Below, one piece after another: positions 23,798 through 54,402 of a stretch of 64,000 bases of DNA. The stretch covers positions 1 to 64,000 of the forward strand of contig CBDUQR010000012.1 of assembly GCA_965369655.1 (NCBI GenBank), in the 5' to 3' direction. The stretch's first letter is position 1. The number at the start of each line of letters is the position of its first letter. The stretch comes from an uncultured bacterium (GTDB lineage: Bacteria > Zixibacteria > MSB-5A5 > JAABVY01 > JAHJOQ01). The position numbers were made by a program, and so were the translations under genes. Below the pieces are notes generated by a model that saw nothing but the letters and a program-made list of their open reading frames with translations, made no database searches and was not told the origin of the DNA.

Positions 23798-23910
23798 AGG
23801 CTGTAGGTCAAACACGACCTACTTTTGAGACAGCCTCTCCACATTTGCCGATGTCAACGCAAGATGGGGCAGACGAGGACGCGAGCCTTGAGCTTCGAAA
23901 TATCTGCCAG
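23798..23910. repeat. REP cluster
   Basis: GTAGGTC...GACCTAC hairpin within AGGCTGT...ACAGCCT; GCAAGATGGGGCAGACGAGGACG shared with ~46386. Confidence 0.65.
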
Positions 23911-38212: not shown

Positions 38213-38335
38213 TCGTTGTGTCTGGTCTTGATCCCGCGTGAACGGGATTGTGACCTGACACGTCAAATCATGTTAGACAACGGCGGCAGGTCACACGAAT
38301 CCGCTTGCACGAATTCGCAAGACCCGCCGTAACGA
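38213..38335. repeat. ~120-bp palindromic dispersed repeat, copy 2
   Basis: Aligns with 294-415, with compensatory stem changes. Confidence 0.85.
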
Positions 38336-38387
38336 TGTAAGACGAATAGCACTCCGTCGGGCAACTTCGAACTGCAAGGATGATATA

Positions 38388-40021: not shown

Positions 40022-40298
40022 ATAGAACTTGGAGCCATTGCAAGCCTGTAACCTGTTGTCCCATCGTCGATAATCATCTCAGCCCAATATAGACTTACAA
40101 GCGTGCGCCGCAATTCCTGCGCCACATATTATGCTTCCATTGCGCGTTCTTTTCGTAACTGCGTGAGATTCAGTCCGTTGCGAAAGTTCGCACATGCTGC
40201 GGTGAAAGTTGCGATTCTGCGAAATCGCTACATCGACGCAGGTGTGTCGGACAAGGATCGCGGTCTATGAAAGCACAAATGACATTTGGGGAGAATCT

Positions 40299-41591
40299 AT
40301 GCTGAAAACTCTCAGACAGTTTGCAGGCCAGATTGGAATTCTCAGGAGCGCCGGGATGAATCGCGGTGGACGGGCTGCTCTCAGAGGAGGGTTCGCGTCG
40401 AGTCCGGCATCCAAACGCGCGGCTCCGACAGGTGAGTACCAGTTGCTCTTTCCGACCGGCGTTGACGCACACGAAGCGAGAGTGCGTCTGTATCGTTTTC
40501 TGAGGAGCCATGTGCCTGTGCTGAATGCGGCGGTCTGGACATGGGTGAAGATGGCATCCGCCGAGCTGTCATATCGGGTTTTCGATCATGACGGGCAGGA
40601 AATCACCTCCCATGAAATCCGGTCGGTCGTCGACAATCTCGGATGCAGGCTCTATGAGAATCGCTACCAGAAATTCGGTGGCCTCGATGCGCTGATGATA
40701 GAGTTCTTCAACACGCTGTTCACCACTGGTTCTGTTTGCGGAGAGCTTCTCGTCGATTCGCACGGCCTGATGGTCGATCGATTCTATTTCATTGATCCGG
40801 CGACGATCCGGTTTCGTCTCGACAACGACGGCGACTGGAACATGCATCAGGAAGTCGAAGGCGAGAAGATCGATCTGCAGCAACCGACCACGTATTACTA
40901 CGGGATGGACAGCAATTCTGTGGAGCCGTGGGGGGTGTCGCTTCTGGGTGCGGTGCCGTTTGCCGCTCGTGTTGAACAAGCGCTCGTAACTGACATGAAC
41001 AGCAGCATGCACAACGCGGGCTATCATCGAATCCATGTGACAATCAAACCTCCGGATCGTCTTCCCGGTGAGGATGAGGAAGCTTATGTCTCGCGGGCGA
41101 ATGAGTATTTCGACGAGACTGTCAAGATGGTGCGGCAGTTCGACCCGGACGACAACCCTGTAACATGGAACGACGTTCAGATCGACTACATCGGACCGGC
41201 ATCGAAAATATCATCTTCGTCGTCGTGGTATCTCAATCACAAGGCGGTTCTCGAAGACATCTGCGCAGGCACGCATCTGGCACCGTTCATGCTCGGATAC
41301 TCGTACGGCGCGACGCATACCTGGGCGGAGTTTAACTTCGAGCTGATGCAGAGACAGTTGCGGACGATACAGAGCGCCGCGATCAGTTTCCTGCGATGGA
41401 TCACCGACGTGGAGTTCGCATTGAAAGGTATCGATGCGGTCTGCCGTTGGGAATTCGCTGGTTCGATAGATGTTGGACTGCTCGACAGGCGGCGTGCAGA
41501 GTCGATTCAGATCGACAATGTTCTCAAGAAACTCGATGCGAAATTGATAGACAGAGAAGCCGCACGAATTCAACTCGGCTGCGACGGTTAG
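40299..41591 (+). CDS. Phage portal protein
   Basis: ~430 aa; LYRFLR..VPVLNAA, GE, FIDPATIRF, PWGVSLL, PFMLG; adjacent to TerL; RBS GGGAG. Confidence 0.78.
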   Translation: MLKTLRQFAGQIGILRSAGMNRGGRAALRGGFASSPASKRAAPTGEYQLLFPTGVDAHEARVRLYRFLRSHVPVLNAAVWTWVKMASAELSYRVFDHDGQEITSHEIRSVVDNLGCRLYENRYQKFGGLDALMIEFFNTLFTTGSVCGELLVDSHGLMVDRFYFIDPATIRFRLDNDGDWNMHQEVEGEKIDLQQPTTYYYGMDSNSVEPWGVSLLGAVPFAARVEQALVTDMNSSMHNAGYHRIHVTIKPPDRLPGEDEEAYVSRANEYFDETVKMVRQFDPDDNPVTWNDVQIDYIGPASKISSSSSWYLNHKAVLEDICAGTHLAPFMLGYSYGATHTWAEFNFELMQRQLRTIQSAAISFLRWITDVEFALKGIDAVCRWEFAGSIDVGLLDRRRAESIQIDNVLKKLDAKLIDREAARIQLGCDG

Positions 41592-41606
41592 TGTCGCTCG
41601 GACGGG

Positions 41607-42950
41607 ATGAAGTTATCCAGGAATAATCGGTGGCGCGCTGCCGTAAGAGATCCTGTCCTGTTCTCGCGGGAGTTCGTCGAGGTCGAACCCCACGAGGGAC
41701 AGATCAGGTGGCTGACAAACTCTGTCAAGCCGGAGAATCTGCTTGTAACCGGCAACCGTTGGGGGAAATCGTTCGTTCAGTCTGTCAAGATCATCCACAG
41801 GTGTGTCTTTCGCATTCGTGCTCTCAAGTACGATACCGCCGGCAGATACAACGCGGTGACCGCATCGATCACGATGGATCAGGCGAAGATCGTTTTTCAC
41901 AACGTACTGAGGCTGATTAAAGGCAAGCCCCTGCTCGAAGCGCTTGTCAATTGCGTCAGGTGGTCGCCGTACCCGCGTTTGTATTTCGCTAATGGCGCGT
42001 TGCTGACAGCTCGTTCGACACAGAACAGAGGCGAACATCTTCTCGGAAACGACTACGATTATTTCAATTTCGATGAGGCCGCGTTTGAACTGCATCCTGA
42101 ATATGTCGTCGACGAAGTCATCGCGATGAGGCTCGCAGATCGTGAGGGCATGTTTGATCTGACTTCCACCCCAAAAGGCAGAAACTGGTATTACAGGCGA
42201 TGGCTCGACCTCTCGAAGCGAGTCGATACGGCGTACACTCAGCAGGGTCACACGCTGGAGAACACCCATGTGAGCAGGAAATATGTCGAGCGGAAAGAAA
42301 AGACTTTGTCAGACAACATAGTCAGCCAGAACATCATGGGAGAGTTTGTCGATTCCGGAGATGAGATAATATCGGAGGAGGATATACGATCCGCGCTTGC
42401 GTTGTCCACGGGATTCAGTGATCCTGTTCAGGGGCACAAGTACTGTCATGGATGGGATCTGGCAAGAAAGGTGACTCACACTGTAGGGGTGACGCTCGAT
42501 ACGACATCGAAACCGTATCAGGTAGTGGCGATCGAGCGATTCCGAGGTCGGGACTGGGACGATGTCTTCTCAGCCATAAGGAAACGCCACAGGAAATATG
42601 GCGGGCCGGTTCTCATAGACTCGACCGGTCTCGGCGATGTCGTCCTGAGCCAGGTCTCCGACATCGGCGCCACAGGGTTCAACTTTGGCGTGGGCGGCGG
42701 CAGGGCAAAGGCGGAGTTGCTGACCAACCTGCAGTTTTTGCACGAACGACGTGAGATCGCATATCCCTACTTTGAGCAGATATCCGGCGATGATTTCTGG
42801 TCGAATCTTCAGGAGTTGAGTGAGGCAACCTGGGAAGACAATACTGCTTGTGATTTTGTGATGGCGCTGGCTCTCGCCTGCTGGCATCTGCGCCACAGAG
42901 GTCAGAGCGGCAGAATCCCGGTCGTCGATCCGCGCGCAGAGAAGATGTAG
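41607..42950 (+). CDS. Terminase large subunit
   Basis: Walker A GNRWGKS, Walker B FNFDEAA, TSTPKGRNW, nuclease GWDLARK, DSTGLGD, DFVMALALA. Confidence 0.93.
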   Translation: MKLSRNNRWRAAVRDPVLFSREFVEVEPHEGQIRWLTNSVKPENLLVTGNRWGKSFVQSVKIIHRCVFRIRALKYDTAGRYNAVTASITMDQAKIVFHNVLRLIKGKPLLEALVNCVRWSPYPRLYFANGALLTARSTQNRGEHLLGNDYDYFNFDEAAFELHPEYVVDEVIAMRLADREGMFDLTSTPKGRNWYYRRWLDLSKRVDTAYTQQGHTLENTHVSRKYVERKEKTLSDNIVSQNIMGEFVDSGDEIISEEDIRSALALSTGFSDPVQGHKYCHGWDLARKVTHTVGVTLDTTSKPYQVVAIERFRGRDWDDVFSAIRKRHRKYGGPVLIDSTGLGDVVLSQVSDIGATGFNFGVGGGRAKAELLTNLQFLHERREIAYPYFEQISGDDFWSNLQELSEATWEDNTACDFVMALALACWHLRHRGQSGRIPVVDPRAEKM

Positions 42951-42976
42951 AAGCCCGGACAATTTGCCCGGGCTTT
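42951..42976. terminator. Hairpin terminator between convergent TerL and PEP-CTERM genes
   Basis: AAGCCCGG-ACAATTTGC-CCGGGCTTT directly after the TerL stop. Confidence 0.65.
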
Positions 42977-42995
42977 ATTCAAATTGGGTCACTCC

Positions 42996-43075
42996 TGTGG
43001 CCGGCAGACCTCCCGGTCTGCCGCAATAATCATCTATCGATCCGACGGGGCAGACGAGGACGTCTGCCGCCCACT
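42996..43075. repeat. REP doublet
   Basis: GGCAGACCTCCCGGTCTGCC and GGGGCAGACGAGGACGTCTGCC; the latter recurs at ~46393. Confidence 0.75.
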
Positions 43076-43078
43076 ACT

Positions 43079-43429
43079 CTACTTCTTAAATCGTCTCAGC
43101 GCTGCACCTCCAGCAAGACCGAAACCGATCAGCAGGAGCGTAGCCGGTTCAGGAACCTCGGGGGGACAGTTCGTATTATGGTCATCGCGGTCCCCATCAA
43201 TGAGCGGGTCGCTGTCAAACATCTGATTGTCAAAGCCGGAAGCGTTTAGGCTTGTGCTCTTGTCAGGTGATGGCAACTGTCCACCACTGTTTCCACCGGT
43301 CAAATTGTCGACCCGTGACATACTGTAACCGTAAGCCGGGGTCCAGGTCAGAGCCAGAAACAGCATTATGATGACCGCAGCCATAGCGATCAGATTGAAT
43401 CTTGATGTAGTATGTTCATATCTCATCAT
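43079..43429 (-). CDS. Small PEP-CTERM sorting-domain protein
   Basis: Signal peptide; VPEPATLLLIGFGLAGGAALRRFKK. Confidence 0.92.
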   Translation of the reverse strand: MMRYEHTTSRFNLIAMAAVIIMLFLALTWTPAYGYSMSRVDNLTGGNSGGQLPSPDKSTSLNASGFDNQMFDSDPLIDGDRDDHNTNCPPEVPEPATLLLIGFGLAGGAALRRFKK

Positions 43430-43464
43430 ATAACCTCGCCAATTAGTATTTGACCTTGATAAGA

Positions 43465-43480
43465 AGCAACTACTATGCCG
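43465..43480 (-). promoter_or_regulatory. Sigma54 promoter of the PEP-CTERM gene
   Basis: CGGCATA-GTAG-TTGCT, ~35 nt upstream of the start codon. Confidence 0.7.
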
Positions 43481-43670
43481 TTACTATTGGGCTTGGGGCA
43501 GTTTCATTATATGTTGTGCGCCAGCAGGTTAGGCAACCACACATAAAGACATGTGTGAAGGCTTTCTGCAGGCTGATGCATATATCATGTTGGCACCTGC
43601 GGCGTCTGGCTGTTCTCATATCCGATCGATGTTGATTCCGTTGGACGGCATGACTGTATAGGAGGTGCCT

Positions 43671-45431
43671 ATGGAATATTCATCAAGCAGTTGTCCGGTT
43701 GAGTTGACCGGCGAAATCGAGACGATTTCTCCCGACCTGCTGCAGGCTGTCGGTGAGGTCGCCGGTTCGGGACGAAATCTGAAAGCCGAGGATCTGTATG
43801 TTCGTTCGATGTTCGTAACGTCAGACAAGATCAATGCGCAGGGCGGACGATTCGGCAAGGCTGAAATGGAGACACTCTGCAGACTCATTCCGGGCGCGCC
43901 GGTCCTGGTCGGACATGATAAATCGAAACTGCCAATCGGGAGATGTTTCAAAGCGGATATAGTCGACCGCGATAGAGAGCCGTGGGTGAAAGCTCTGTTC
44001 TACTGGCTCAAGTCGACGACGGGTGCAGATGATCTTCGGAGAAATATCGATGGCGGAATCTACACGGAATGCTCGCTCGGATTCAGTTTTGGGCTTCCCA
44101 AATGCTCGATTTGTTCGGGCGATGTTCGGAAGTGCAGCCATATTCCGGGTCGTGAATATCGAAACATGTCCGGATCGATGGAGAAATGCCATTACAAGTA
44201 CTGTGACGTCAGCAGTGTAAACGAAATCTCACTTGTTTATCGAGGAGCGGTCCCGGGCACATCGGTATCGTCACAGATGTTATGCGGCGGTGATCTGAAC
44301 GTGACTCCTCACGATGTCTATCGTTCCACATCGATGGACAGCCTGCTGATAATGGAATCTGATTGTATGCTTTCTGGCTTTGATGGATCTGTCGTCGAGC
44401 CTGTCTACCACGGGATTCCGTTCGCTTTTCATCGGGACGACGGCAGTATCACCGTAAGCGCACCTGATGGCTGGAGCGACTTTGGCCCTGTGCGTTCGAT
44501 GACCGATGCGCTTCGAGGGCTTTTCGCAGAAACAGATTCAATCAGGGGGATGCTCACCTGCTATCGAGGCAAGAGCAGGATTCCTGTCTACTTGTTCGAT
44601 CAGGTTAAAGATTCCACCCGGCTCGGACCCGTGCGGTGGCGTCTCAAAGTCTGCCTCGATTCGGACTGCTCCGAGAATCTGAGCGATGGTCAAATTGACA
44701 AACTGAAGTCCCTCGGTGTGGACATAGTATTTTGCAGACACCTGAAGAATGAGCATCAACTCAGAAAGGCGCTTATCAGTGCGCCGAGAGAGGGCATGGT
44801 GGTTGTGTCCGGTGATCGTGCGGCGGTTGTCAGGTCCGGTTCTGTCTTTCGTCTCAGGGTCGGCAGTGTCAGACCAACGCGATCCGGCAAGGCTTGCTAT
44901 GATCTCTCATTCGCTGACGAATCGCTCGGCGTATTCAGAAGCTATGAGTCGTCGATCGATGCTGCTGTTGGTGATACGCTCTTCGTGCAGACGGAAATCG
45001 AATATGTCTCCGGTTCGCTCTCTCTGCGAAAGATCAGAGTTATCGACAACCTTAGACGATTCTTCGCACCCGACCTCGGAATCATACTGAGACAGGAAAA
45101 CGATCAGTCCTGCGGGAGATTCCAGTTGTTCGATTTGGGCAAGGGCGCCCGACTTCTCAACTTATCATGCGGCGATGCGAACAACTGGGTGGCTTTCCCG
45201 AATTTCTCCGAAAAGCATCTCAGAGATGGCAAGACGCTGGTGGGACACGACATTGAAGATCCGCAGATCACAGATGCTACCGTTCGTGATTCAGGTGATG
45301 CAGAGCTTCTCGAAAGCTCGGAGTCCGGAGTACGCATCGGTCTCGATGGGAGCGAATGCTCCGGTGAGTTCATCCTGAGAAAAGCGGTGATTCATGGCGA
45401 GAAGGTCGAGTTGTTCTACAAGCTATCCTGA
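43671..45431 (+). CDS. Prohead protease-like protein fused to degenerate DNA ligase and LigD-phosphoesterase-like domains
   Basis: RBS GGAGG; VGHD, ECSLGF, CSIC..C.H, EISLV; then VEPVYHGIP, EGMVV; C-terminal DSG..E...LDG..CSGEFILR. Confidence 0.7.
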   Translation: MEYSSSSCPVELTGEIETISPDLLQAVGEVAGSGRNLKAEDLYVRSMFVTSDKINAQGGRFGKAEMETLCRLIPGAPVLVGHDKSKLPIGRCFKADIVDRDREPWVKALFYWLKSTTGADDLRRNIDGGIYTECSLGFSFGLPKCSICSGDVRKCSHIPGREYRNMSGSMEKCHYKYCDVSSVNEISLVYRGAVPGTSVSSQMLCGGDLNVTPHDVYRSTSMDSLLIMESDCMLSGFDGSVVEPVYHGIPFAFHRDDGSITVSAPDGWSDFGPVRSMTDALRGLFAETDSIRGMLTCYRGKSRIPVYLFDQVKDSTRLGPVRWRLKVCLDSDCSENLSDGQIDKLKSLGVDIVFCRHLKNEHQLRKALISAPREGMVVVSGDRAAVVRSGSVFRLRVGSVRPTRSGKACYDLSFADESLGVFRSYESSIDAAVGDTLFVQTEIEYVSGSLSLRKIRVIDNLRRFFAPDLGIILRQENDQSCGRFQLFDLGKGARLLNLSCGDANNWVAFPNFSEKHLRDGKTLVGHDIEDPQITDATVRDSGDAELLESSESGVRIGLDGSECSGEFILRKAVIHGEKVELFYKLS

Positions 45432-46174
45432 TCGTGGTGGACGTATGATCGCATGAACAGATGGGTCGATCCAAACGATCCCGCGCTGTACAATCTGACG
45501 AGACCAACACCATCAGCGTAGTATTCGTACGATGTACTGAATGCCTCGTCATTCCCGGGAAGAGTTCGATCGCACTTGATGACAAAGCTGTTGAACCTGC
45601 CGGCAGGTACGAGAATGTTCTCTCGCCTGACGAATTCCCGGGTTGTCTCGAATCCCCATGAGAGAAAAAGCATGGACTCGATGACCGCATTGCCATCTAC
45701 GAACATCGGTGGAGTGTACGATTCCCAGCAATCCTCTTCGATGAAGGCAATCGGGAACAGTAACGGGAGCTCGGGGAATTCCATCAGAGAATCGCCGCCA
45801 TCAGTCCGGACGTAATATCCCAGGTTCACAATAGAATTGTCATTGATTTTCAGTGCGGCGATTGGCGCCGAATCAACAAACAGATCGATCCGACCGGGTG
45901 ATTCTGAGTTCACTCTTCCGGAGAATATATACACAGTGGTGTCGATTGTGGAATCGTACGGCGGAAATGTTTTCACCAAATCATAGCTGATATACTCGAT
46001 GTCGAAATCCTCTTGCAGTCCCAGAAGTCTTGCGGTGTTGTCGGATATGAAATTTTCTTCATCGGTCCCGGAGTCATCACACGCGCCGACAATGAAAACG
46101 AGCGATGTAACGAGTAGCAACAGTCTGCGCACGATCTGACACCTCCTGTAAATAAAACCCACCCGCCGTTTCAC
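45416..46174 (-). CDS. Putative lipoprotein
   Basis: Lipobox VGAC; VPAGRF, YYADGVGLVR; start codon uncertain. Confidence 0.7.
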   Translation of the reverse strand: MKRRVGFIYRRCQIVRRLLLLVTSLVFIVGACDDSGTDEENFISDNTARLLGLQEDFDIEYISYDLVKTFPPYDSTIDTTVYIFSGRVNSESPGRIDLFVDSAPIAALKINDNSIVNLGYYVRTDGGDSLMEFPELPLLFPIAFIEEDCWESYTPPMFVDGNAVIESMLFLSWGFETTREFVRRENILVPAGRFNSFVIKCDRTLPGNDEAFSTSYEYYADGVGLVRLYSAGSFGSTHLFMRSYVHHDQDSL

Positions 46175-46252
46175 TCTGAGTGGACTACCGGTTCAACCTG
46201 TAATTATCGATGGCTGATGTCAACAAGAACAGGGGGGGGGGTGAGTCCTGAT

Positions 46253-46499
46253 GTAGGTCGTGTTCCGAACCCCGCAGTGCGGGATGAGAAACGCGACACA
46301 TCCATATAGTTACATTGATGTCGGGTTTCTTGCAGGCTTCGCCTGCTGCGGAACGCCGACCTACTGGATACCAGCCGGTATCAGTGCAAGATGGGGCAGA
46401 CGAGGACGTCTGCCGTCCACAGGAATTTTGTGCTGCACTCGGCAGATGTAGACATCTGCCGGGCACGAGGATGGACCCCGGTTTTCACCGGAGTGACAA
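46253..46499. repeat. REP cluster with three families
   Basis: GTAGGTCG...CGACCTAC; GGGGCAGACGAGGACGTCTGCC; ATGGACCCCGGTTTTCACCGGAGTGACAA. Confidence 0.75.
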
Positions 46500-46646
46500 G
46501 TGTGAGCACCGCCGATTGTGAAAGCAGAAATCAGACAGGAACAGAGGTGATGTTCGGAATCGGCAATCAGACGAGAGACACGCTCGCCAGTTTGCGAGCA
46601 TGATCGTCAGAATAAATCCAACAGGCTAATAACCGGAGAAGAGTGA

Positions 46647-47072
46647 ATGGATCAATGCAGATTAGTTGAGGAATTAGGGGCATACCGTGATTTACTTCAG
46701 TCGGGAAAGCTGACTGAGCTTGATCTCGACGCCCTCGGAGCCTGCCTTTCAGAGGCGCTGGCATTGCTCGATATTCTAAGATCTCAGTCGGATGACGCTC
46801 GCGTCCTAAAGCAGGATGCGATAAACGAGATCGCGAACATGAGCATCGCAGCCATCGCTCTGAATGGCAGCAGGCAGATTGCCGACAAGTCGAAGCTGCT
46901 CGATGAACTGTCAGGACTCGATGCGTCAAAGTTGTTGCAGGCTCGCGCCAGGGCGAGGAAACTCGTCACCGATTTGCAGCGCTCCGGCAGGATGCCGGTC
47001 AAGACTGTCGGAAGCCAGCAGTGTCATCAATCAATCGAAGATTTCAGGATAGGAGACGAGCGGGTCGGTTGA
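46647..47072 (+). CDS. Putative capsid scaffolding protein
   Basis: Helical, 141 aa, immediately upstream of the decoration and MCP genes; positional call. Confidence 0.5.
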   Translation: MDQCRLVEELGAYRDLLQSGKLTELDLDALGACLSEALALLDILRSQSDDARVLKQDAINEIANMSIAAIALNGSRQIADKSKLLDELSGLDASKLLQARARARKLVTDLQRSGRMPVKTVGSQQCHQSIEDFRIGDERVG

Positions 47073-47121
47073 CCCAGAATGTGGGAGGGGACTCCCGTTG
47101 CAGTCTTGAAAGGAGAATTCA

Positions 47122-47544
47122 ATGAGTGTAAGAAGTCAGAATCTCGAAACGATCGCGCCAGTCTACGCGACATTCGGTATCCACCAGACGGCGGGCGCTG
47201 ATGACCTTGCCGACTCGAACATCGGTGAGGCTGTTGTGCTGACGGATGATTATGAAATCGGGCCTTCATCCAATGGCGAAGCGATCATCGGCAAGCTCGT
47301 AGCGCTGACCCTGACCGATGCGGACACGGGCAAACGCAACGCGACGGTCCAAATCGGCGGAGTCATGACGCTCCCGATCACTACCACCTACCCGCAGGTC
47401 GGCAATCGTGTCGTCTGTGGAGCAAACGGAGCTGTCAAGCAGGTGCCCGCGCTGGCCGGCGACGATCCCGCAGGCGGCAATGTCGCGCGCGGCACAGTGC
47501 TCGCAGTCAGCGGCACTTCCACCTGCACGATCTATCTTCCATAA
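47122..47544 (+). CDS. Putative capsid decoration/cement protein
   Basis: Small beta-rich Gly/Thr/Val protein before MCP; strong RBS AAAGGAG. Confidence 0.62.
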   Translation: MSVRSQNLETIAPVYATFGIHQTAGADDLADSNIGEAVVLTDDYEIGPSSNGEAIIGKLVALTLTDADTGKRNATVQIGGVMTLPITTTYPQVGNRVVCGANGAVKQVPALAGDDPAGGNVARGTVLAVSGTSTCTIYLP

Positions 47545-47559
47545 CGAAAGGAGTAATCT

Positions 47560-48660
47560 GTGGATATTAGCGAATTCATCACCGGAAACATGCCGAGCGC
47601 GCTGGTCTCGATGGAACCGGTTCGCAGCAACTCGGTCGATCTATCACGAACCAAACAAGTTGAAATCGACCGTGACATGTATCTCGAAGCACAGGCACAA
47701 GGGATGAGTCTGACAGAGCTGCTTGAGTCGGATCCTTACGATCCATCGACTCCCGGCTCTCCTCTCGATGCATTCGAGCGGCAGCTTCTGTTGAAGGGAG
47801 TGCGGACCGGCGGCAGGCGCCCCGCCACGGTTGAGCTGTTCTACAGGAACGCGGCGATGCTGCTCCCTGAGTTCATCATGCGAGAGATCAAGCATGGCAT
47901 GACGCTCCGCGCCGATTACAACCGACTGCCCGCATCATCGACGGATGTCGCGACGAATCGGTACACACCGATTTATATCGATGCTTCCGCGACCGACGAC
48001 AACATGTCACTTCGCCCGGTCGGCGAAGGGGGAGAGATTCCTCAGATTGTCGTGACCGAGCAGAAGAATACTGTCGCGATTCCCGACTACGGCATCACAC
48101 TGAAAGCGTCGTACAAGGCGTTGCGTCACAGGACGACGGCGCAGTTCAAGGTCATCCTCTGGTATATCGGTTTCAAGCTCCAGGCCGACAAAGTGTCGCT
48201 GGTGGCCGATGTAATCCAGAACGGGGACGGCAACAGCAACCCAGCGCAGGTAATCAACACGGATTCGTCGGGTTCGATTGACTATGACGATCTCGTGAAG
48301 TTCTATCTCGAATTCTTCCCGTACGAGTTGAACACCGTGGTCTGTCACAAGACGATGGTGCGGACTCTCCTGAACCTGACCGAATACAAGGACCCGACCG
48401 TCGGGTTCAAGTTCCAGACAGACGGGGAACTTGTCTCTCCGCTCGGCGCGAACATCGTCAGATGCGACGACTGCCCTGAAGACATCATCATCGGACTCGA
48501 CAATCGATTTGCTGTCGAAGAGGTCAGGAGCCAGCCGCTCATGGTCGAATTCGATAAGATCATCGAGCAGAAGTTCGAAGAAGCGGTGATATCCGAATCG
48601 GTCTCGTATGCGAAGATCATTCCGGAGGCATCGTTGGTCCTCGATACCGTTTACGCCTAA
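47560..48660 (+). CDS. Major capsid protein (HK97-type)
   Basis: 366 aa; LDAFERQL, LLPEFI, VGEGGEIP, YGITLKASY, GDGN, IIGLD; RBS AAAGGAG; strongly C/G-ending codons. Confidence 0.82.
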   Translation: MDISEFITGNMPSALVSMEPVRSNSVDLSRTKQVEIDRDMYLEAQAQGMSLTELLESDPYDPSTPGSPLDAFERQLLLKGVRTGGRRPATVELFYRNAAMLLPEFIMREIKHGMTLRADYNRLPASSTDVATNRYTPIYIDASATDDNMSLRPVGEGGEIPQIVVTEQKNTVAIPDYGITLKASYKALRHRTTAQFKVILWYIGFKLQADKVSLVADVIQNGDGNSNPAQVINTDSSGSIDYDDLVKFYLEFFPYELNTVVCHKTMVRTLLNLTEYKDPTVGFKFQTDGELVSPLGANIVRCDDCPEDIIIGLDNRFAVEEVRSQPLMVEFDKIIEQKFEEAVISESVSYAKIIPEASLVLDTVYA

Positions 48661-48680
48661 GTCACATTCGGCACATAACT

Positions 48681-48707
48681 CGCCCGTCCTGATAATCGGG
48701 GCGGGCG
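48681..48707 (+). terminator. Hairpin after MCP (attenuator or mRNA stabiliser)
   Basis: CGCCCGTCCTGA-TAA-TCGGGGCGGGCG, no T-tract. Confidence 0.5.
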
Positions 48708-48720
48708 CTGAGGATGCATT

Positions 48721-50136
48721 ATGATTAAGGAAATCGCAACGACGAACGCATATTACGGCGGCGGTCTGTCGATCCAGAAAAAGCTGTTTGTCGTGCCGTC
48801 CGGCGCATATCAGGGCAGAGCGATCATCGTCTTTCCGACGTCGTCGAGCCAGATTGTGTTCGTGTGGGCCGATCCGCCGTACACCTTATGGTCGTCGGAG
48901 ACAATCGTTGCATCGGACTCGGCGGACTATCCGGCCTGCGCACACATGGATGATGACGGGAATGTCTATGTCGCGTACACGGTGCAGAGTTCTCTCGACC
49001 TTGCGGAGAAGAAGCTGACTTTTTCGGACGGCGTCTGGCAGGCCGGTTCCAAGAATGTCGTGTACAACGCGGATTCCAATTACTTTCCGTCGCTTTACAA
49101 GGATGTTTTCGACCGTCTGTGGGTGAGTTTCACCCGGGAATCGGGAGGTGTATACTACGTCAATGTCAAGAGATCGACCGACGACGGCGTGACATGGGGT
49201 ACAGGTCCTTCGGATCCCGGTACTGCTCTTACGTCAGGAGCCGATTCGTGCTACAGCCAGCTTGTCTACAGGCCGAACCATGTCTACTGCATTTACACCG
49301 AGGGCGGCACCAAGCTCGCATATCGCAGGCGAAACATCGCCGCTGCGCTGTACGACGACGAAGTCTCACTGTATACCGGCACCGGTCTTGGCGCGAATTT
49401 CTCCGGGGCGGCATCCGAGGACTTGCGGCTGGGCATAGCCTTCTGCGACAGCTCGAACGTATACTACAAAGAATTCGACGGTTCGCTCTGGTCTGGTATA
49501 GAGACAATCGACACGTCATACTCGGTCAATCCGAATCTCAGTTTCAGGCAGAATGTCCCGTATGTCGTTTTCGCCAGACAGATCGGCACAGATCAGCAGC
49601 TTCCGTATTTCAGCTATCGCGAGGGAAGCGAGTTCGTGAGCCCGATCCCGATGTCTGTGGAACTGAGTACATTCGACAAAGTTCTCTGTTACAGGCCATC
49701 GTCCGCAGTGCAGTTCATGGACAAGACAAGCGCTGCTGCGGATGATACTTCGGCTGATGTCTATCACGATGACTCGAACAAGCTGATGCTGTCCGCCGGC
49801 GATGGGGTTTACATCGGCCAGTCGGAGCCATTCACAACCGTAGCCGTTAATCTGTCGACGACCGGCGGCGGCGGGAATGTTTCATGGTACTACTGGGATG
49901 GTTCGGACTGGAAAGTCTTCACTCCGGCATCCGGAGCGTACAACTTCGACAGTTCACCCGCGCTGGTCAGGCTCTGGGAGGATAGCGATGATCTTCCGGG
50001 CGACTGGCAGCTATCGGTCGTCTCCAATTCCGCGAAATTCTGGGTCAAGGCGGTCGCGTCATCCGATTTCAGCACAGCGCCGGTCGGGTCACAGATAACC
50101 GGTGTAACAAATCTTTCATACATCATTTCCGGGTGA
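48721..50136 (+). CDS. Beta-propeller / Asp-box protein, probable particle accessory protein
   Basis: KRSTDDGVTWG Asp-box; C-terminal WYYWDGSDW beta domain; no signal peptide. Confidence 0.6.
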   Translation: MIKEIATTNAYYGGGLSIQKKLFVVPSGAYQGRAIIVFPTSSSQIVFVWADPPYTLWSSETIVASDSADYPACAHMDDDGNVYVAYTVQSSLDLAEKKLTFSDGVWQAGSKNVVYNADSNYFPSLYKDVFDRLWVSFTRESGGVYYVNVKRSTDDGVTWGTGPSDPGTALTSGADSCYSQLVYRPNHVYCIYTEGGTKLAYRRRNIAAALYDDEVSLYTGTGLGANFSGAASEDLRLGIAFCDSSNVYYKEFDGSLWSGIETIDTSYSVNPNLSFRQNVPYVVFARQIGTDQQLPYFSYREGSEFVSPIPMSVELSTFDKVLCYRPSSAVQFMDKTSAAADDTSADVYHDDSNKLMLSAGDGVYIGQSEPFTTVAVNLSTTGGGGNVSWYYWDGSDWKVFTPASGAYNFDSSPALVRLWEDSDDLPGDWQLSVVSNSAKFWVKAVASSDFSTAPVGSQITGVTNLSYIISG

Positions 50137-50144
50137 GGTAGGGC

Positions 50145-50963
50145 ATGTCGTTTACAAACATAGAACTGGTACGAAAGCATCTGCAGGAGTCGATCAGAGT
50201 ATCCGGCGAAGTTGAAAACTATCTCCTGAAGTTGAGCGGTACGGAAACAGTGAGGCTGCCGAATGCCGGGCTGGTGGACGATTCCGAGATAATCAAGGGG
50301 AAGACACAGGTGACGCCGCATCGGGAGTCATTCGTCCTGGCTGACGTCGCGCATTCTCTGACTCGCAGCGAACTCACGCCTGAGAGCGTGGTGCTGGCGA
50401 AGGACGACTCGCTGAGTGAAATCTACGCTGAGAATATCGACTACACCGTTGACTACTCGGACGGTAAGATCACTCGCATCGCAACGGGCGCCATCGAGAG
50501 CGGTCAGAGCGTGACAGCCTGGTACGGTGCGTTTACTGTCTATACCCGGCAGACGGATTATCAGGTCTCTTACCGCGACGGCGAACTTACCAGAATCGAG
50601 TCGGGGAGTATCGGAGACGGTCAGCTTCTCTGGATCGACTATCGGATCGAAAGCTCGGTCTTCAGCGATGACGCGATATTCAACGCTATCGTCGAGGCTT
50701 CCGCGCAACTCGATTGCCAGATCGATCAGGCAATCGCCGGTGATGCATCGTCGATCCTGACTGTTGCAGAGACCTACCTGACAGTATCGCTCCTTGCCCA
50801 GATTCGGGCGCTGGAGGTACTCCAGTCAAGTTCCCTGGCGGACAGGAGCAGAATATCGGCAAGCCTGCTGGAGATATCGAACCGGTACAGAGAGAGCTTC
50901 GCTGAATTGATCAAGCCATATCGATCCAGAAAGCCGACGCTTGCCGGTCCCGTACGGTCTTAG
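50145..50963 (+). CDS. Head-tail adaptor-like protein with a duplicated beta insert
   Basis: FTNIELVRKHL start; SDDAIFNAIVEASAQLD helical C-terminus; two DY.V.Y.DG..TRI..G.I..GQ repeats. Confidence 0.55.
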   Translation: MSFTNIELVRKHLQESIRVSGEVENYLLKLSGTETVRLPNAGLVDDSEIIKGKTQVTPHRESFVLADVAHSLTRSELTPESVVLAKDDSLSEIYAENIDYTVDYSDGKITRIATGAIESGQSVTAWYGAFTVYTRQTDYQVSYRDGELTRIESGSIGDGQLLWIDYRIESSVFSDDAIFNAIVEASAQLDCQIDQAIAGDASSILTVAETYLTVSLLAQIRALEVLQSSSLADRSRISASLLEISNRYRESFAELIKPYRSRKPTLAGPVRS

Positions 50964-50978
50964 TCAAAGGAGCAAACA

Positions 50979-51353
50979 GTGAACAGTACTCTGGCATATC
51001 TGCGAGGCAGGCGGTTGTGGGTTGTTGAAAACGTGTCGGTATGGGGGAAACTCTCGGCGTTTGCCGGCAATTTTCTTGTCACCGAGGAATATGGCGGTAC
51101 AAAACGGTTGCTGTTCTGGCAGGTGATGCTCGGCGGCGACAGGCAGCAAGTCAGTTTCGGCGATCTCGTGGATATCAACGGCAATTCACTGCCGGAGGAA
51201 ATATCCAGGCCGAAGGTGATTGTGATGCCGAAGACAGATGTCGACGTCGTTGTTGTCGGCAGAGAATCCAACAGATCATTTACAATCGCCAAGACTGGCG
51301 AGACTTCATCATCGGGTCTCGTTGACCTGATGATCTTCGAGGTGGGATCATGA
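50979..51353 (+). CDS. Hypothetical protein of the phage-like cluster
   Basis: RBS AAGGAG; operonic. Confidence 0.7.
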   Translation: MNSTLAYLRGRRLWVVENVSVWGKLSAFAGNFLVTEEYGGTKRLLFWQVMLGGDRQQVSFGDLVDINGNSLPEEISRPKVIVMPKTDVDVVVVGRESNRSFTIAKTGETSSSGLVDLMIFEVGS

Positions 51354-51496
51354 TTACAGAAAGCCTGACACTTGTGGTGTGTCCCGCATGCGGGCAAATC
51401 AATGTCTGTGTCGACGGTGGCGACGTCTGCGTATGTCCCGTATGCCATCAGGGAAACACCGTGACCGACGAAATCAGGATCGAGCTGTCGCGTTAG
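51350..51496 (+). CDS. 48-aa zinc-ribbon microprotein, absent from the ORF track
   Basis: MITESLTLVVCPACGQINVCVDGGDVCVCPVCHQGNTVTDEIRIELSR; ATGA overlap with the upstream stop; ends 3 nt before the next ATG. Confidence 0.7.
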   Translation: MITESLTLVVCPACGQINVCVDGGDVCVCPVCHQGNTVTDEIRIELSR

Positions 51497-51499
51497 CGT

Positions 51500-51769
51500 A
51501 TGAATGCAGGCAGCAAGGTCACTCGAAAGAAAGCAAAGTCGAGACGTCCTTCCGACTCCGAGATGCTCGAAGAGGTCCTGCAGGGGATCCACGAGAAGCT
51601 CAAGGAAAAGGGGTACGAACCAAAGGTCGCCGACTTTCTGAAAGTGCTCGAAATGAAGTACAAGCTCAAGTTGACCGACGACGGCAGACAAAAACTGCTC
51701 GATCTGATCGAGTCGGCTCGCCAAAAAGAGCTTGGCGGGAATGAGGAGGATTCTGATGAGGCTGATTAG
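51500..51769 (+). CDS. Small charged helical protein (candidate small terminase)
   Basis: 89 aa, basic N-terminus, helical; function inferred only from context. Confidence 0.55.
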   Translation: MNAGSKVTRKKAKSRRPSDSEMLEEVLQGIHEKLKEKGYEPKVADFLKVLEMKYKLKLTDDGRQKLLDLIESARQKELGGNEEDSDEAD

Positions 51770-52541
51770 ACTTGCGTCGGCTTGCTGTGCTGTTATCCTG
51801 TTGACATTCCCGGCAGTTGCCGAGACGCTGGTGCTTAATGACACGCTGACAGTGTTCGACGGTGAGATGTACGGCAGCACTGGATGCGATTCCGAATTCC
51901 CGGCCCGGAACTGTCAGTTCCTCAATCGAGGTGGTGCAGACTTCTTCACGGTCGGGAAAAGAGCAGCCCATGTCTCGACCGTCTGGCGGTCCCTCATGGG
52001 ATTCGACTTCTCAGACTTGCCAAACCATGAACTCGTCGAACTCGACTCCGTCATACTCACTCTCAAATGCATCGTCGTCTCACAATCAGACACAGTCCTG
52101 CACCTCGGCTTTCAGTCGCTGAAACACAACGTCATCGAAGGCTTCATCACCGGTTATATGGAATGGACTGACTCATCGTTCACATGGAGCGCGAGAAGCT
52201 TCGCCTTGAACATCGATACCGTTCTATGGCAGACCGGCGGAGTGAAGGGAGACGACGACCGTGAAGCGACCTATTACACAGCATCGACTCCGATCGACAC
52301 CGTCGGAACGTACAGAATCGATCTGACCGGTCTCTTCGAGCACTGGCTCGACAGTTCCGCAACTGAACGTTGGTGCGTCCTCGGCGATACTATCGCTCTT
52401 GCAGGGGGGCGACCTTACGCGCGAAAAGCATTCTGGTCATCGGAGACGACAACCCCGGCCGACCGACCCAAACTCGAAATATTTTACAAGACAACGGGGC
52501 GTCGTCATGAACATGTGCTTTCCGGAGGAATACTCAAATGA
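51756..52541 (+). CDS. Exported DNRLRE-like domain protein
   Basis: Signal peptide (..FPAVA-E); RSLMGFDFSDLP, FWSSE....RPKLEI. Confidence 0.65.
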   Translation: MRLIRLASACCAVILLTFPAVAETLVLNDTLTVFDGEMYGSTGCDSEFPARNCQFLNRGGADFFTVGKRAAHVSTVWRSLMGFDFSDLPNHELVELDSVILTLKCIVVSQSDTVLHLGFQSLKHNVIEGFITGYMEWTDSSFTWSARSFALNIDTVLWQTGGVKGDDDREATYYTASTPIDTVGTYRIDLTGLFEHWLDSSATERWCVLGDTIALAGGRPYARKAFWSSETTTPADRPKLEIFYKTTGRRHEHVLSGGILK

Positions 52542-54040
52542 ATACGTCTGCAAGACTGAAAATGCTGGCAATCATGCTGCTGTTGACGGCGATCATCATT
52601 CAGCGCGACGCCGCAGGCTTCGGAGTGTCGCCTGAGTTTGTCGGCAATGGGTCGGGTGACTCTGTTTATGTCACGTTCGTATCGATCGATACGACTTACT
52701 ATTCGGAGGTCAGAAATCTCGACAGTCTCGATATTCTCAGATACAAACCGGATGGTGTTTTGCTCGACTCGACATCGGAGGATGCCTCGAACGTGCTGAA
52801 TCCAACCAAGGGATTCTACAGGGCGGCCTTTCGCGCATCAGACGGCTCAGGCACAATGGGCGTCTACACGGTGGTTGTCCGCGGCTGGCTCGCCGGAAAG
52901 GAGAGAGGCATCGCATCCGGTGTGTATGAAGTGATCGATGAGAATATGGATGGATACCTCGGCAATCTCGATGCTGCGATCTCGTCGCGCGGGACCAGCA
53001 ATCTTACAGCGGCAGACAACATCGGAATCAACCTGGACGATGTCACCGGTACGCTCGATGCCTCTGAGATCGGGGATGACGCAATTACCAGTTCCAAGAT
53101 TGCTCCAGATGCTATCGGATCATCGGAGTTGGCGGATGGAGCCATCGGATGGACTGAGATCGCATCGAGTGCGCTGTCGTCGGTCAAGTTCCAGAGCGGC
53201 ACATTCACAGCGGAGAAGTTCGATACAACGTTCTTCAACGCCATCAGCGATACACTCTTCGGCGCCGACACCGCGCGCTATGCGACGGCTGGGACATACG
53301 GAGAACTGCTCAGTGAGCTCTTTACCCGTGACGACTTCGATTCAGCCTCTGTCGCCAGATCAGTCTGGGATAACGACGTTGTCGCTGAGATCGATCGAAG
53401 GATTCGCTATGCCGACAGCGTGGGGACGGTCCTGAATGTTCCGACATCCGGCTCGGGAGCCTATGCATGCAGCCTGTTCTATTTCGAAGCGAACGATACG
53501 ACCGCGATCCAGGGAGTATTCTCGAGGGCGATGAACAATACTCAGACTGCAACGGCAGGAGTAGGGCTCACGAATTCGGACGGTCTTGTGGTGATGTCCC
53601 TCGATGCAGCCATGTATCGGATATGGTCATATCTGACCGGATATACATTTGCGCCGTTACCTGACTCTGTGAGCGTTGCGAGTCCGTCAGTGGTGGATAC
53701 GATATGGGGAACGACGTTCGATCCGGGTGACCCGGTTTATCCATCGCTGTGTCGAGTGTATGGATGGGTGCGGGATCTCTCAGGCGTAGCGATCAGCGGG
53801 GCAACCGTTACAGCGAGCGTGAAACAAAGCCCGTTGAGATACGGATCGATTATCGTCTCGCCATATTTCAGGTCGACGGTATCCGACTCGACAGGGTATT
53901 GGTATCTCGATCTGCTGCCGTCTGCGAACCTTGACCCCGTGACAACAGCGTATTCGTTTTCGATCTACTACCTGACCGGAGCAATCGCTGTGAAAGAGGT
54001 CGCGGTACCTGATGAATCGAACTGGGAACTAAACTGGTAA
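52538..54040 (+). CDS. Exported protein with fibre-like repeats
   Basis: N-terminal hydrophobic signal; DAITSSKIAP/DAIGSSELAD/GAIGWTEIAS repeats; C-terminal CRVYG...SDSTGYW domain. Confidence 0.65.
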   Translation: MNTSARLKMLAIMLLLTAIIIQRDAAGFGVSPEFVGNGSGDSVYVTFVSIDTTYYSEVRNLDSLDILRYKPDGVLLDSTSEDASNVLNPTKGFYRAAFRASDGSGTMGVYTVVVRGWLAGKERGIASGVYEVIDENMDGYLGNLDAAISSRGTSNLTAADNIGINLDDVTGTLDASEIGDDAITSSKIAPDAIGSSELADGAIGWTEIASSALSSVKFQSGTFTAEKFDTTFFNAISDTLFGADTARYATAGTYGELLSELFTRDDFDSASVARSVWDNDVVAEIDRRIRYADSVGTVLNVPTSGSGAYACSLFYFEANDTTAIQGVFSRAMNNTQTATAGVGLTNSDGLVVMSLDAAMYRIWSYLTGYTFAPLPDSVSVASPSVVDTIWGTTFDPGDPVYPSLCRVYGWVRDLSGVAISGATVTASVKQSPLRYGSIIVSPYFRSTVSDSTGYWYLDLLPSANLDPVTTAYSFSIYYLTGAIAVKEVAVPDESNWELNW

Positions 54041-54063
54041 TCAATGATAGAAGGAGGATTCCA

Positions 54064-54402
54064 ATGATGTGGATCACAGATAACAGCGGACCAGCCATTG
54101 CGGTATTCGTCTGCTCTCTCCTGACGTCGGCACTGTATCTCGTCAGGAAGTACGTGATGCCGTTACTCAAAGTCGAACGGAACAGGAGATACGCCGAGTG
54201 GATCGCGAAGATAGCGGATGAGGTCACCGACGATCTGGTTGGGCGATATCCAGAGAAGGATTGGGCGAGGATGCTCGATGAGTTGGTCGATGGCGTTATC
54301 AGAATCTGTGGCGTGTCGCCTGAAACCGCCAGACGTGCAGCAGGCGCGGCTGTCGGCAGACGAAATGCAAAAGGACCAGACTCATCAGGCGGGAATAGTT
54401 GA
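54064..54402 (+). CDS. Holin-like single-TM protein
   Basis: RBS AGGAGG; one N-terminal TM then a helical charged domain; last gene of the cluster. Confidence 0.55.
   Translation: MMWITDNSGPAIAVFVCSLLTSALYLVRKYVMPLLKVERNRRYAEWIAKIADEVTDDLVGRYPEKDWARMLDELVDGVIRICGVSPETARRAAGAAVGRRNAKGPDSSGGNS

Follow-up and report, generated by a model that had tools for sequence, protein, structure and literature searches.

The locus analyzed here raises a simple question: do the phage head and DNA-packaging genes on a contig of an uncultured member of the Zixibacteria (GenBank assembly GCA_965369655.1, contig CBDUQR010000012.1) belong to a phage or to the bacterium that carries them? The window, a stretch of 64,000 nucleotides that starts at the first base of that contig, holds a run of plus-strand open reading frames (ORFs) between 40.2 and 54.4 kb. 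These encode a portal protein, the large terminase (TerL), a protease-like fusion protein, a scaffold-like protein, a cement or decoration protein, the major capsid protein (MCP), a beta-propeller, a gp6-like head-tail adaptor, two small proteins, a secreted fiber-like protein, and a small membrane protein. A preliminary description of this DNA had placed a phage head and packaging gene set at positions 40299 to 54402 and proposed a domesticated, apparently tailless system resembling a gene transfer agent (GTA). The gene set itself was borne out by the ORFs and by family matches. The system is very probably domesticated and maintained by its host. Our preferred reading, held with moderate confidence, is that of a vertically inherited phage head and DNA-packaging system that entered before the sampled families diverged and that would form a DNA-carrying particle with no long tail. 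To judge from its genes, the system likely packages DNA; that it acts as a gene transfer agent we propose only tentatively, at slightly less than an even chance.

Far from being patchy among relatives, the system turned out to be near-universal in the phylum. MCP was found in 190 of 201 genomes across the Zixibacteria, comprising 172 of 180 high-quality genomes, 103 of 108 genera, and 18 of 19 families, nearly always as a single match without an internal stop. Among the 41 genomes closest to that of the window, 35 had MCP and 37 had a TerL free of internal stops, and a pattern scan of species-representative genomes indicated that at least 287 species-level genomes encode an MCP relative. The full-length Zixibacteria MCPs form one cluster at 50% identity, the next full-length relatives being at most 40% identical. 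The gene order is also kept. A search for the syntenic cluster, made on 16 loci of up to 20 kb from 16 genomes, recovered the recurring order portal, TerL, p588 (the protease-like fusion), p140 (cement), MCP, p471 (propeller), p272 (adaptor), p124, p500 (fiber-like), and p112 (membrane protein). The genes for p140, MCP, p471, p272, and p124 were present in all 16 loci, the N-terminal part of p588 in 15, p500 in 14, TerL in 12, and portal in 11. Portal was also found away from MCP, at another place in the genome, in all five genomes that were searched for it. The portal-TerL block, contiguous with the capsid block in the window, lies about 100 to 400 kb from it in three genomes (G036, G106, and G199).

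The capsid and packaging genes have diverged along with their hosts. Quick LG+G4 trees of MCP (30 genomes), TerL (29 genomes), and an RpoB fragment (30 genomes), with SH-aLRT support only, each recovered all eight multimember families with the minimum possible number of label changes, which none of 200 shuffles reached. A deeper clade of families f1, f2, and f5 was common to the MCP and RpoB trees, and one of f12, f7, and f15 was common to all three. Distances correlated as well (Mantel r of 0.805 for MCP versus RpoB and 0.761 for TerL versus RpoB, with none of 2,000 permutations as high), and the mean MCP protein distance was 1.21 times that of RpoB. Identity to the window's MCP was 75 to 84% within the family, 60 to 68% within the order, and 54 to 64% within the class, compared with 80 to 83%, 73 to 74%, and 66 to 69% for RpoB. 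In the one genome pair with unsaturated dS (G007-G009), dN/dS was 0.054 for MCP, 0.050 for TerL, 0.086 for p471, and 0.152 for p140, against 0.032 for RpoB, values that indicate purifying selection; more distant pairs gave similar ratios with saturated dS. The dS values of the cluster genes in that pair (0.17 to 0.40) resembled that of RpoB (0.38), which argues that the cluster genes diverged when their hosts did. The host maintenance supposed in the preliminary description thus agrees with trees, distances, and selection alike, and the Zixibacteria MCPs, rather than nesting among extant phages, form one tight clade to which phages are at most 35% identical. Because MCP is single copy, gene order is kept, the trees are congruent with that of RpoB, dN/dS is low, and the nearest phages are this distant, the cluster is not a prophage. 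It most likely encodes a host-owned virus-like particle that has not been described. We found no publication on the cluster in the literature on Zixibacteria with gene transfer agents, with capsid and terminase, or with prophages, and the GTA literature was likewise silent on the phylum, supplements not being covered by these searches. The individual features are collected in Table 1.

Table 1. Cluster genes, embedded host-type genes, and repeat elements, with positions in the window
Feature	Position	Strand	Evidence
Portal protein	40299-41591 (ORF opens at 40209, TTG)	+	phrog_3753, 4e-30; phrog_30703, 2e-14
Large terminase TerL, ATPase and nuclease domains	41607-42950	+	phrog_2, 2e-32; Terminase_6N PF03237, 26.2 bits (cutoff 22)
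PEP-CTERM secreted protein, host type, inside cluster	43079-43429	-	PF07589, 30.4 bits (cutoff 20.7)
Fusion protein p588	43665-45431	+	N-terminal ~200 aa prohead-protease-like; C-terminal ~380 aa degenerate ATP-dependent DNA-ligase-like plus LigD-phosphoesterase-like
DUF3108-like lipoprotein-type gene	45416-46174	-	PF21347, 30.7 bits (cutoff 27)
Scaffold-like helical protein p141	46647-47072	+	Role from position only
Putative cement/decoration protein p140, Phage_cement_2/DUF2190-like	47122-47544	+	Weak PHROG matches; language-model features; hhalign
Major capsid protein MCP	47560-48660	+	phrog_3922, 3.6e-66
Beta-propeller with C-terminal beta-sandwich, p471	48721-50136	+	AF2 mean pLDDT 93.2
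Putative gp6-like head-tail adaptor with inserted beta domain, p272	50145-50963	+	AF2 mean pLDDT 86.5, helical bundle
Conserved 124-aa protein p124	50979-51353	+	tblastn, 16/16 loci, 34 to 75% identity
Small charged helical protein p89	51500-51769	+	tblastn, 11/16 loci; weak matches to PHROGs of unknown function
Secreted protein p269, host-family-specific	51732-52541	+	Orthologue in L025 only (16 loci); N-terminal hydrophobic segment
Secreted tail-fiber-like protein p500	52538-54040	+	phrog_892 (tail fiber), 5.6e-11
Small single-pass membrane protein p112	54064-54402	+	One N-terminal hydrophobic segment
REP-like 31-nt palindromic element	43044-43074; 46390-46420; 46436-46466; 23863-23893		Repeat family D3, 4 copies, 71 to 100% identity

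The intact ORFs that the preliminary description had named proved sound for portal, TerL, MCP, decoration protein, and adaptor, while its "protease" and "holin" had been inferred and drew no Pfam or PDB sequence match. It had also left unnamed the fiber-like protein, the beta-propeller, and the two small genes for p124 and p89. Conservation of the portal starts near the methionine at 40299 rather than at the opening of the ORF. In TerL, residues G49-K54, D156/E157, S187-T188-P189, D284, D338, and D344 are invariant in all 29 aligned genomes. We take these to be the Walker A motif (G49-K54), the Walker B motif (D156/E157), the STP motif, and the acidic nuclease residues.

MCP fell just below the cutoff of PF25209 (25 bits against 27) and had no match at an E value of 0.01 to PF05065, which we take to be the HK97-type capsid family. 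The protein directly preceding it, p140, is the best-conserved small protein of the cluster, with 52 to 73% identity among loci and a mean column identity of 70%. Its protein language-model features scored 0.97 to 0.98 to clusters automatically named DUF2190 and to a viral cluster with Phage_cement_2 in 24% of its proteins (recognition 2374). In the one phage relative that we inspected, a locus from a 43-kb contig (L185), the gene directly upstream of MCP matches phrog_4588 (1e-16), and the p140 profile matched that gene (hhalign 90.9%, E value of 1e-6); a PDB profile search with p140 was empty. Together these matches suggest a cement or decoration protein. By its position only, p141 is the candidate scaffold. 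Its slot is occupied by a same-strand, fast-evolving helical ORF of 133 to 188 aa in 12 of the 16 loci, with weak and only pairwise similarity among them, and p141 has no family match in Pfam or PHROG.

The most unusual protein of the set is p588. Six residues (His84, Ser137, Cys147, Cys150, Cys157, and His159) are invariant in 16 of 16 orthologues, and the motifs around His84 and Ser137 presumably resemble those of Peptidase S78, the HK97-type prohead protease. Homologues of the N-terminal domain (24 to 33% identity) lie between portal and MCP in seven of the nine IMG/VR phage contigs that have them, which points to a prohead-protease-like domain homologous to the phage gene in the protease position. 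The C-terminal part was recognized through an orthologue in genome G040 that matches PF01068 (5.8e-29) and PF13298 (1e-4). A profile of eight other long orthologues, the window's included, matched the G040 protein over 360 columns (hhalign 98.3%, E value of 2e-14) and archaeal DNA ligases in the PDB (E value of 0.007). The window's p588 gives no PF01068 match and reads V-Y-H-G where the G040 protein reads K-Y-D-G, so the usual catalytic lysine is absent from it. Across the 201 genomes, a full and well-conserved ligase fusion was found in 9 of 10 genomes of family f15 and in all four of f12; it is shortened in f7 (8 of 8) and weakly matching in f17 (8 of 21), and the remaining ligase matches lie at other loci and are stand-alone enzymes about 330 aa long. 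The ligase/phosphoesterase module thus appears intact in two host families and degenerate elsewhere, including in the window. The f12 and f15 fusions, in ORFs of 730 to 790 aa (for example L022:12708-15041 in G040), carry an apparently intact ATP-dependent DNA ligase and LigD-type phosphoesterase. One in-frame stop was seen in each of three fusion matches (G158, G112, and G152). Prohead proteases get built into the procapsid, and it may be speculated that the ligase/phosphoesterase module is for this reason carried inside the shell.

Three conserved genes follow MCP. The first encodes p471, which has no predicted membrane or signal segment and whose Foldseek matches were sialidases, lectins, and glycan-cleaving enzymes, with a chain of the LME-1 phage portal-tail complex at rank 8. 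Its VIA Z to a propeller lectin was 26.8, with many other propellers close behind and none standing out; its profile reached only sialidases among PDB sequences (E value of 0.1), and it had no match in the phage collection. The alignment consensus holds an S-x-D-x-G-x-T-W motif, presumably an Asp-box. We regard p471 as a candidate spike or nozzle of the particle. The helical bundle of p272 matched at least 15 phage neck or adaptor chains with a VIA Z of 6.7 to 9.3, among them phiCD508 (9.3), T4 gp13/14 (9.1), GP4 (8.7), Mu (8.5), HK97 gp6 (7.9), and the adaptor of the Rhodobacter capsulatus gene transfer agent, RcGTA (6tba_2A, 7.0). These Z values are middling, and helical prenyl synthases interleave with the adaptors at similar Z. 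Foldseek against the PDB gave weak matches to the beta insert only, and the PDB sequence profile gave nothing useful. Because adaptors recur among the fold matches and because of the position of the gene, a gp6-like adaptor is the best reading of this model.

The third of these genes, for p124, lies directly after the adaptor gene in every locus, and its product has no PHROG or PDB match and belongs to no recognizable family. A predicted complex of p272 with p124 scored 0.37 against 0.15 for the best control. Of 80 solved complexes, 58 reach that mark, only 7 of them with scores of at most 0.60; of 110 mismatched pairs, 2 do, both with scores in that lower range. Contacts agreed between runs in at least 93% of cases, with a partner pLDDT of at least 74. 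This lends weak support to a pairing, and p124 is a possible stopper or neck partner of the adaptor. A 306-aa ORF on the opposite strand (50960 to 51880) was considered as a fourth inserted host gene and rejected as a shadow ORF, the plus-strand genes for p124 and p89 being conserved in its place. In tblastn, p124 outscored the antisense ORF in all nine loci that match both, and it was found in 16 of 16 loci against nine for the antisense ORF.

Toward its 3' end, the cluster encodes secreted-type and membrane proteins. The C-terminal part of p500, about 200 aa, is present in 14 of 16 loci, and a CarboxypepD_reg match to the protein (20.6 bits) is below the cutoff. This protein may have a role at the envelope, whether in release or in uptake, or may be no more than a linked neighbor. 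Orthologues of p112 were found in nine of 16 loci, with the hydrophobic segment above threshold in six of the nine. No family match was found for p112 in Pfam or PHROG, so that the "holin-like" label of the preliminary description is unverified, and p112 is the sole candidate for a lysis gene in the cluster. In 11 loci, for example L019:7710-8033, L022:12371-12673, and nine further ones, the scaffold slot is separated from the protease-like gene by a conserved gene whose product, about 100 aa long, has a single membrane helix at its N terminus and a coiled coil; the genome of the window lacks a homologue.

The cluster is interrupted by host-type genes. The two opposite-strand genes that the preliminary description had reported within the module are real, the PEP-CTERM and DUF3108-like proteins both exceeding their Pfam cutoffs. 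The PEP-CTERM slot is filled likewise in L025, L020, and L183, and a DUF3108-like gene occupies the same slot in five of the 16 loci, from several families. The reported overlaps, of 16 bp between the genes for p588 and the lipoprotein-type protein (45416 to 45431) and of 18 bp between the last gene and the convergent PgsA gene (54385 to 54402), were found as described, as was the host-like composition (GC content of 0.52 to 0.56 in the cluster against 0.47 to 0.56 window-wide). Likewise, the REP-like elements occur both in the module and elsewhere, with three copies in gaps of the cluster and one outside, 20 kb away (23863). The upstream flank is ordinary, with genes for DeoC aldolase, CMD, GAF, and LppM, and the downstream flank begins with PgsA. 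PADLOC defense models matched no family among 10 cluster proteins, and NCBIfam models gave only subthreshold matches, two to the p272 insert and one to p89. Of the sequencing runs listed for positions 46600 to 50200, none was RNA; the 12 listed were DNA, three of them with at least half of the sampled words.

Some further observations concern these flanks. A 127-nt direct repeat, 80% identical between its copies, lies at positions 294 to 420 and 38213 to 38339 of the window, 38 kb apart, the second copy directly upstream of the GAF gene. Downstream, on the minus strand, positions 55019 to 57187 and 59852 to 61924 encode large secreted-type proteins with a common repeated C-terminal module (79-nt repeat family D1, with a weak dockerin-like match). 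Paralogues of that module cluster around the capsid locus in several other genomes, with at least four in L014. In the complete genome G037, the slot next to portal holds a different ORF of 475 aa (L030:3692-5119) whose C terminus matches the C-terminal domain, about 65 aa long, of the window's 722-aa and 690-aa proteins.

The distant phage relatives indicate what the ancestor may have looked like. In the phage collection, five records of uncultured gut phages match MCP with 31 to 35% identity, and IMG/VR holds 14 MCP-related loci, one of them 63% identical (discussed below) and the other 13 at 27 to 33%. Among those 13 phage contigs, eight have a portal homologue (19 to 23% identical), nine a homologue of the p588 N terminus, and six the order portal, p588-like gene, MCP; tblastn detected no homologues of p471, p272, p124, or p500 in them. 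In L185, MCP is followed by a Neck1/tail-completion protein, an immunoglobulin (Ig)-domain protein, and a tape measure (phrog_991, 2.9e-23), which have no counterpart in the Zixibacteria cluster. Because this inspected relative has neck and tape-measure genes after MCP, the ancestor was probably a long-tailed phage, of which the Zixibacteria set would have kept the head and not the tail. No tail tube or terminator was found in the conserved cluster, and the tape-measure family PF10145 and sheath family PF04984, the only two tail families searched genome-wide, had no match in the genome and did match in control genomes. The term "tailless" of the preliminary description thus stands for a long tail and goes too far beyond that, since adaptor, possible stopper, and propeller are conserved and a neck or very short tail is possible. 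The closest MCP relatives outside the Zixibacteria (40% identity) include a protein of a metagenome-assembled genome of Candidatus Hinthialibacter antarcticus. The protein cluster concerned (P0125) occurs on contigs of up to 309 kb and may represent a second chromosomal capsid locus, in another phylum.

Under our preferred reading of a host-maintained head and packaging system, MCP, p141, p140, and portal would form a procapsid in the cytoplasm, which the protease-like domain of p588 would mature, with its ligase/phosphoesterase-like tail perhaps inside the shell. TerL would then pump DNA through the portal; p272, perhaps together with p124, would close it, and the cytoplasmic p471 may form a spike or stub. 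The resulting particle, lacking a long tail, would be released from a fraction of cells and carry host DNA, as GTAs do. Several observations weigh against this reading. A tail that could conduct DNA was not found, which leaves no known route of delivery, and the two-family tail search leaves room for a divergent tail locus elsewhere. A small terminase was not recognized, and in the 16 loci the 1.2 kb upstream of portal holds no conserved ORF, a family-specific LppM gene being the only one to recur. Neither an endolysin nor a proven holin was found in the cluster. Residues 1 to 205 of p588 have no Pfam match even at an E value of 1 and no PDB profile match. Finally, p500 has an N-terminal hydrophobic segment resembling a signal peptide in all 14 orthologues, a misfit with assembly onto a cytoplasmic particle.

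The genes are, moreover, neither indispensable nor always found together. MCP is absent from 11 of the 201 genomes, eight of them among the 180 of high quality, and neither MCP nor TerL was found in the genomes of family f6 that were searched. Of five MCP-less genomes examined, two (G052 and G015) lack all four genes searched (MCP, TerL, portal, and p471), and three (G042, G111, and G178) have deletions, keeping intact portal and TerL without MCP and p471; in G111, this is a clean internal deletion from the scaffold slot to p124. The complete genome G037 has portal, MCP, p140, p471, and p272, and TerL was not found in it. Pseudogenization, a concern for the domestication proposed in the preliminary description, was thus rare, and the MCP losses, the deletions, and the TerL-less G037 mean that the system is dispensable and sometimes decaying. 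Alphaproteobacterial GTAs have likewise been reported to decay.

The alternative that survives best, although we consider it unlikely, is that the capsid has been kept for something other than DNA transfer between cells, as a container for protein or DNA. It could be an encapsulin-like compartment or a device that stores or exports DNA, and the ligase/phosphoesterase-like tail of p588 would be its tethered cargo. The unrecognized tail, small terminase, and lysis enzyme fit this, as does the capsid block of G037 with no detectable TerL. The C-terminal module of p588 is kept across families even without its catalytic lysine, which would suit a structural or cargo role, and the linked fiber-like and neighboring proteins are secreted or membrane bound. 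However, the conservation of portal and TerL equals that of MCP, their ATPase and nuclease motifs are invariant, and dN/dS is 0.05, which argues for DNA packaging; a head-tail adaptor is present in every locus, and encapsulins are not known to have a portal or terminase. A further reading is equally doubtful. In it, the DNA-packaging head without a long tail would be an organelle-like particle of an undescribed kind, with a LigD-type end-joining module tethered to its maturation protease (active in f12 and f15), working with the secreted fiber-like and membrane proteins. Such a particle would export, protect, or hand over DNA together with rejoining enzymes and would not be a classical transducing GTA.

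It is very improbable that a temperate phage or satellite family has repeatedly infected Zixibacteria and seems conserved through its commonness. The genes are unmistakably phage-like, and the IMG/VR record with 63% MCP identity (L183) files the same gene set as viral. That record, however, is only 11,112 bases long and carries portal, TerL, PEP-CTERM, p588, p140, MCP, and p471 with an m722-like flank. It shares that flank and the PEP-CTERM gene with the chromosomal loci and is most likely a chromosomal fragment filed as a virus. Otherwise, the nearest phages of IMG/VR and the phage collection reach no more than 35% identity. Trees and distances that track RpoB, dS values like those of RpoB, single-copy syntenic genes with host-type genes embedded among them, and the splitting of the set into loci 100 to 400 kb apart in three genomes all speak against repeated infection. 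So does the gene content: as the preliminary description had noted, integrase and att-like repeats are missing, the contig having no tyrosine recombinase (all four of the genome lie on other contigs) and a repeat search of the window finding no direct repeats that bracket the cluster. No replication, integration, or lysogeny families were found among the cluster ORFs, serine recombinases and replication genes not having been searched genome-wide. Least probable of all is that the cluster is what remains of a cryptic prophage, now functionless and in decay, for although losses and internal deletions occur and the ligase-like domain is degenerate in most families, frames are open across the sampled families (18 of 19 for MCP), dN/dS is 0.05 to 0.15 with an MCP distance only 1.21 times that of RpoB, catalytic residues are invariant, and neutral DNA would not outlast a divergence at which RpoB itself is 66 to 69% identical.

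The GTA descriptions that we could find all concern a small number of cultured lineages. Here an entire phylum, uncultured and at home in sediments and the subsurface, has kept a phage head and packaging motor; its MCP changes hardly faster than RpoB. Should the particles contain host DNA, genes would move through anoxic sediments by a major route that has gone unrecognized. Such particles would also put bacterial DNA into "viral" fractions and give rise to false calls of prophages or viruses, of which IMG/VR already contains one. With no long tail and with a protease-like protein fused to a ligase-like module, the system is a test case for the uses of a domesticated capsid.

How does the cluster compare with known systems? 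Encapsulins are alike in that the cell keeps a virus-type capsid protein, to which cargo might be tethered. They are not known to have a portal, terminase, adaptor, or cement protein, and the Zixibacteria set has all four; with portal and TerL present, conserved, and linked, it is not an encapsulin system. Uncultured siphovirus-like phages (L185, and GenBank MT835508 with its relatives) have MCPs 27 to 35% identical, and L185 shares the order portal, p588-like gene, cement-like protein, MCP; unlike the Zixibacteria set, it continues with genes for neck and tail completion, an Ig-domain protein, and a tape measure. BaGTA, VSH-1, Dd1, and VTA are independent domestications of tailed phages by a host lineage. 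No GTA is known to make particles without a tail, and none of these four is known from more than a clade of genus to order level. The Zixibacteria set extends over 18 of the 19 families sampled in its phylum, and it lacks a long tail.

By the definition given in PMC11841831, GTAs have structural genes derived from tailed phages, are maintained by their hosts through vertical inheritance and purifying selection, and lack replication and integration genes of their own; their loci comprise a core cluster plus parts elsewhere. The same source describes a particle with a DNA-filled capsid and a tail that contains mostly host DNA in pieces of 4 to 14 kb, too small for the whole system, is released by lysis, and delivers its DNA to recipients (PMC11841831). 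The Zixibacteria cluster shares the tailed-phage origin, the host maintenance, the absence of recognizable replication and integration genes, and the parts at other loci. RcGTA-type elements of R. capsulatus and Caulobacter are alike in having a vertically inherited, phage-derived head and packaging cluster under purifying selection without integration or replication genes and, in some genomes, parts at separate loci; a gp6-like adaptor is a further likeness. They are not homologous as a set. The Zixibacteria MCP matches PF25209 (below cutoff) and phrog_3922, not PF05065, and portal precedes TerL. Neither a small terminase nor a tail tube, tape measure, or terminator was found. A ligase/phosphoesterase-like module is joined to the protease-like protein, the fiber-like protein is secreted, and the particle itself is predicted from its genes. 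New here are the protease-ligase/phosphoesterase fusion and its distribution, the secreted fiber-like protein, the two small genes under the shadow ORF, the long-tailed phage relative, and the pattern of partial loss.

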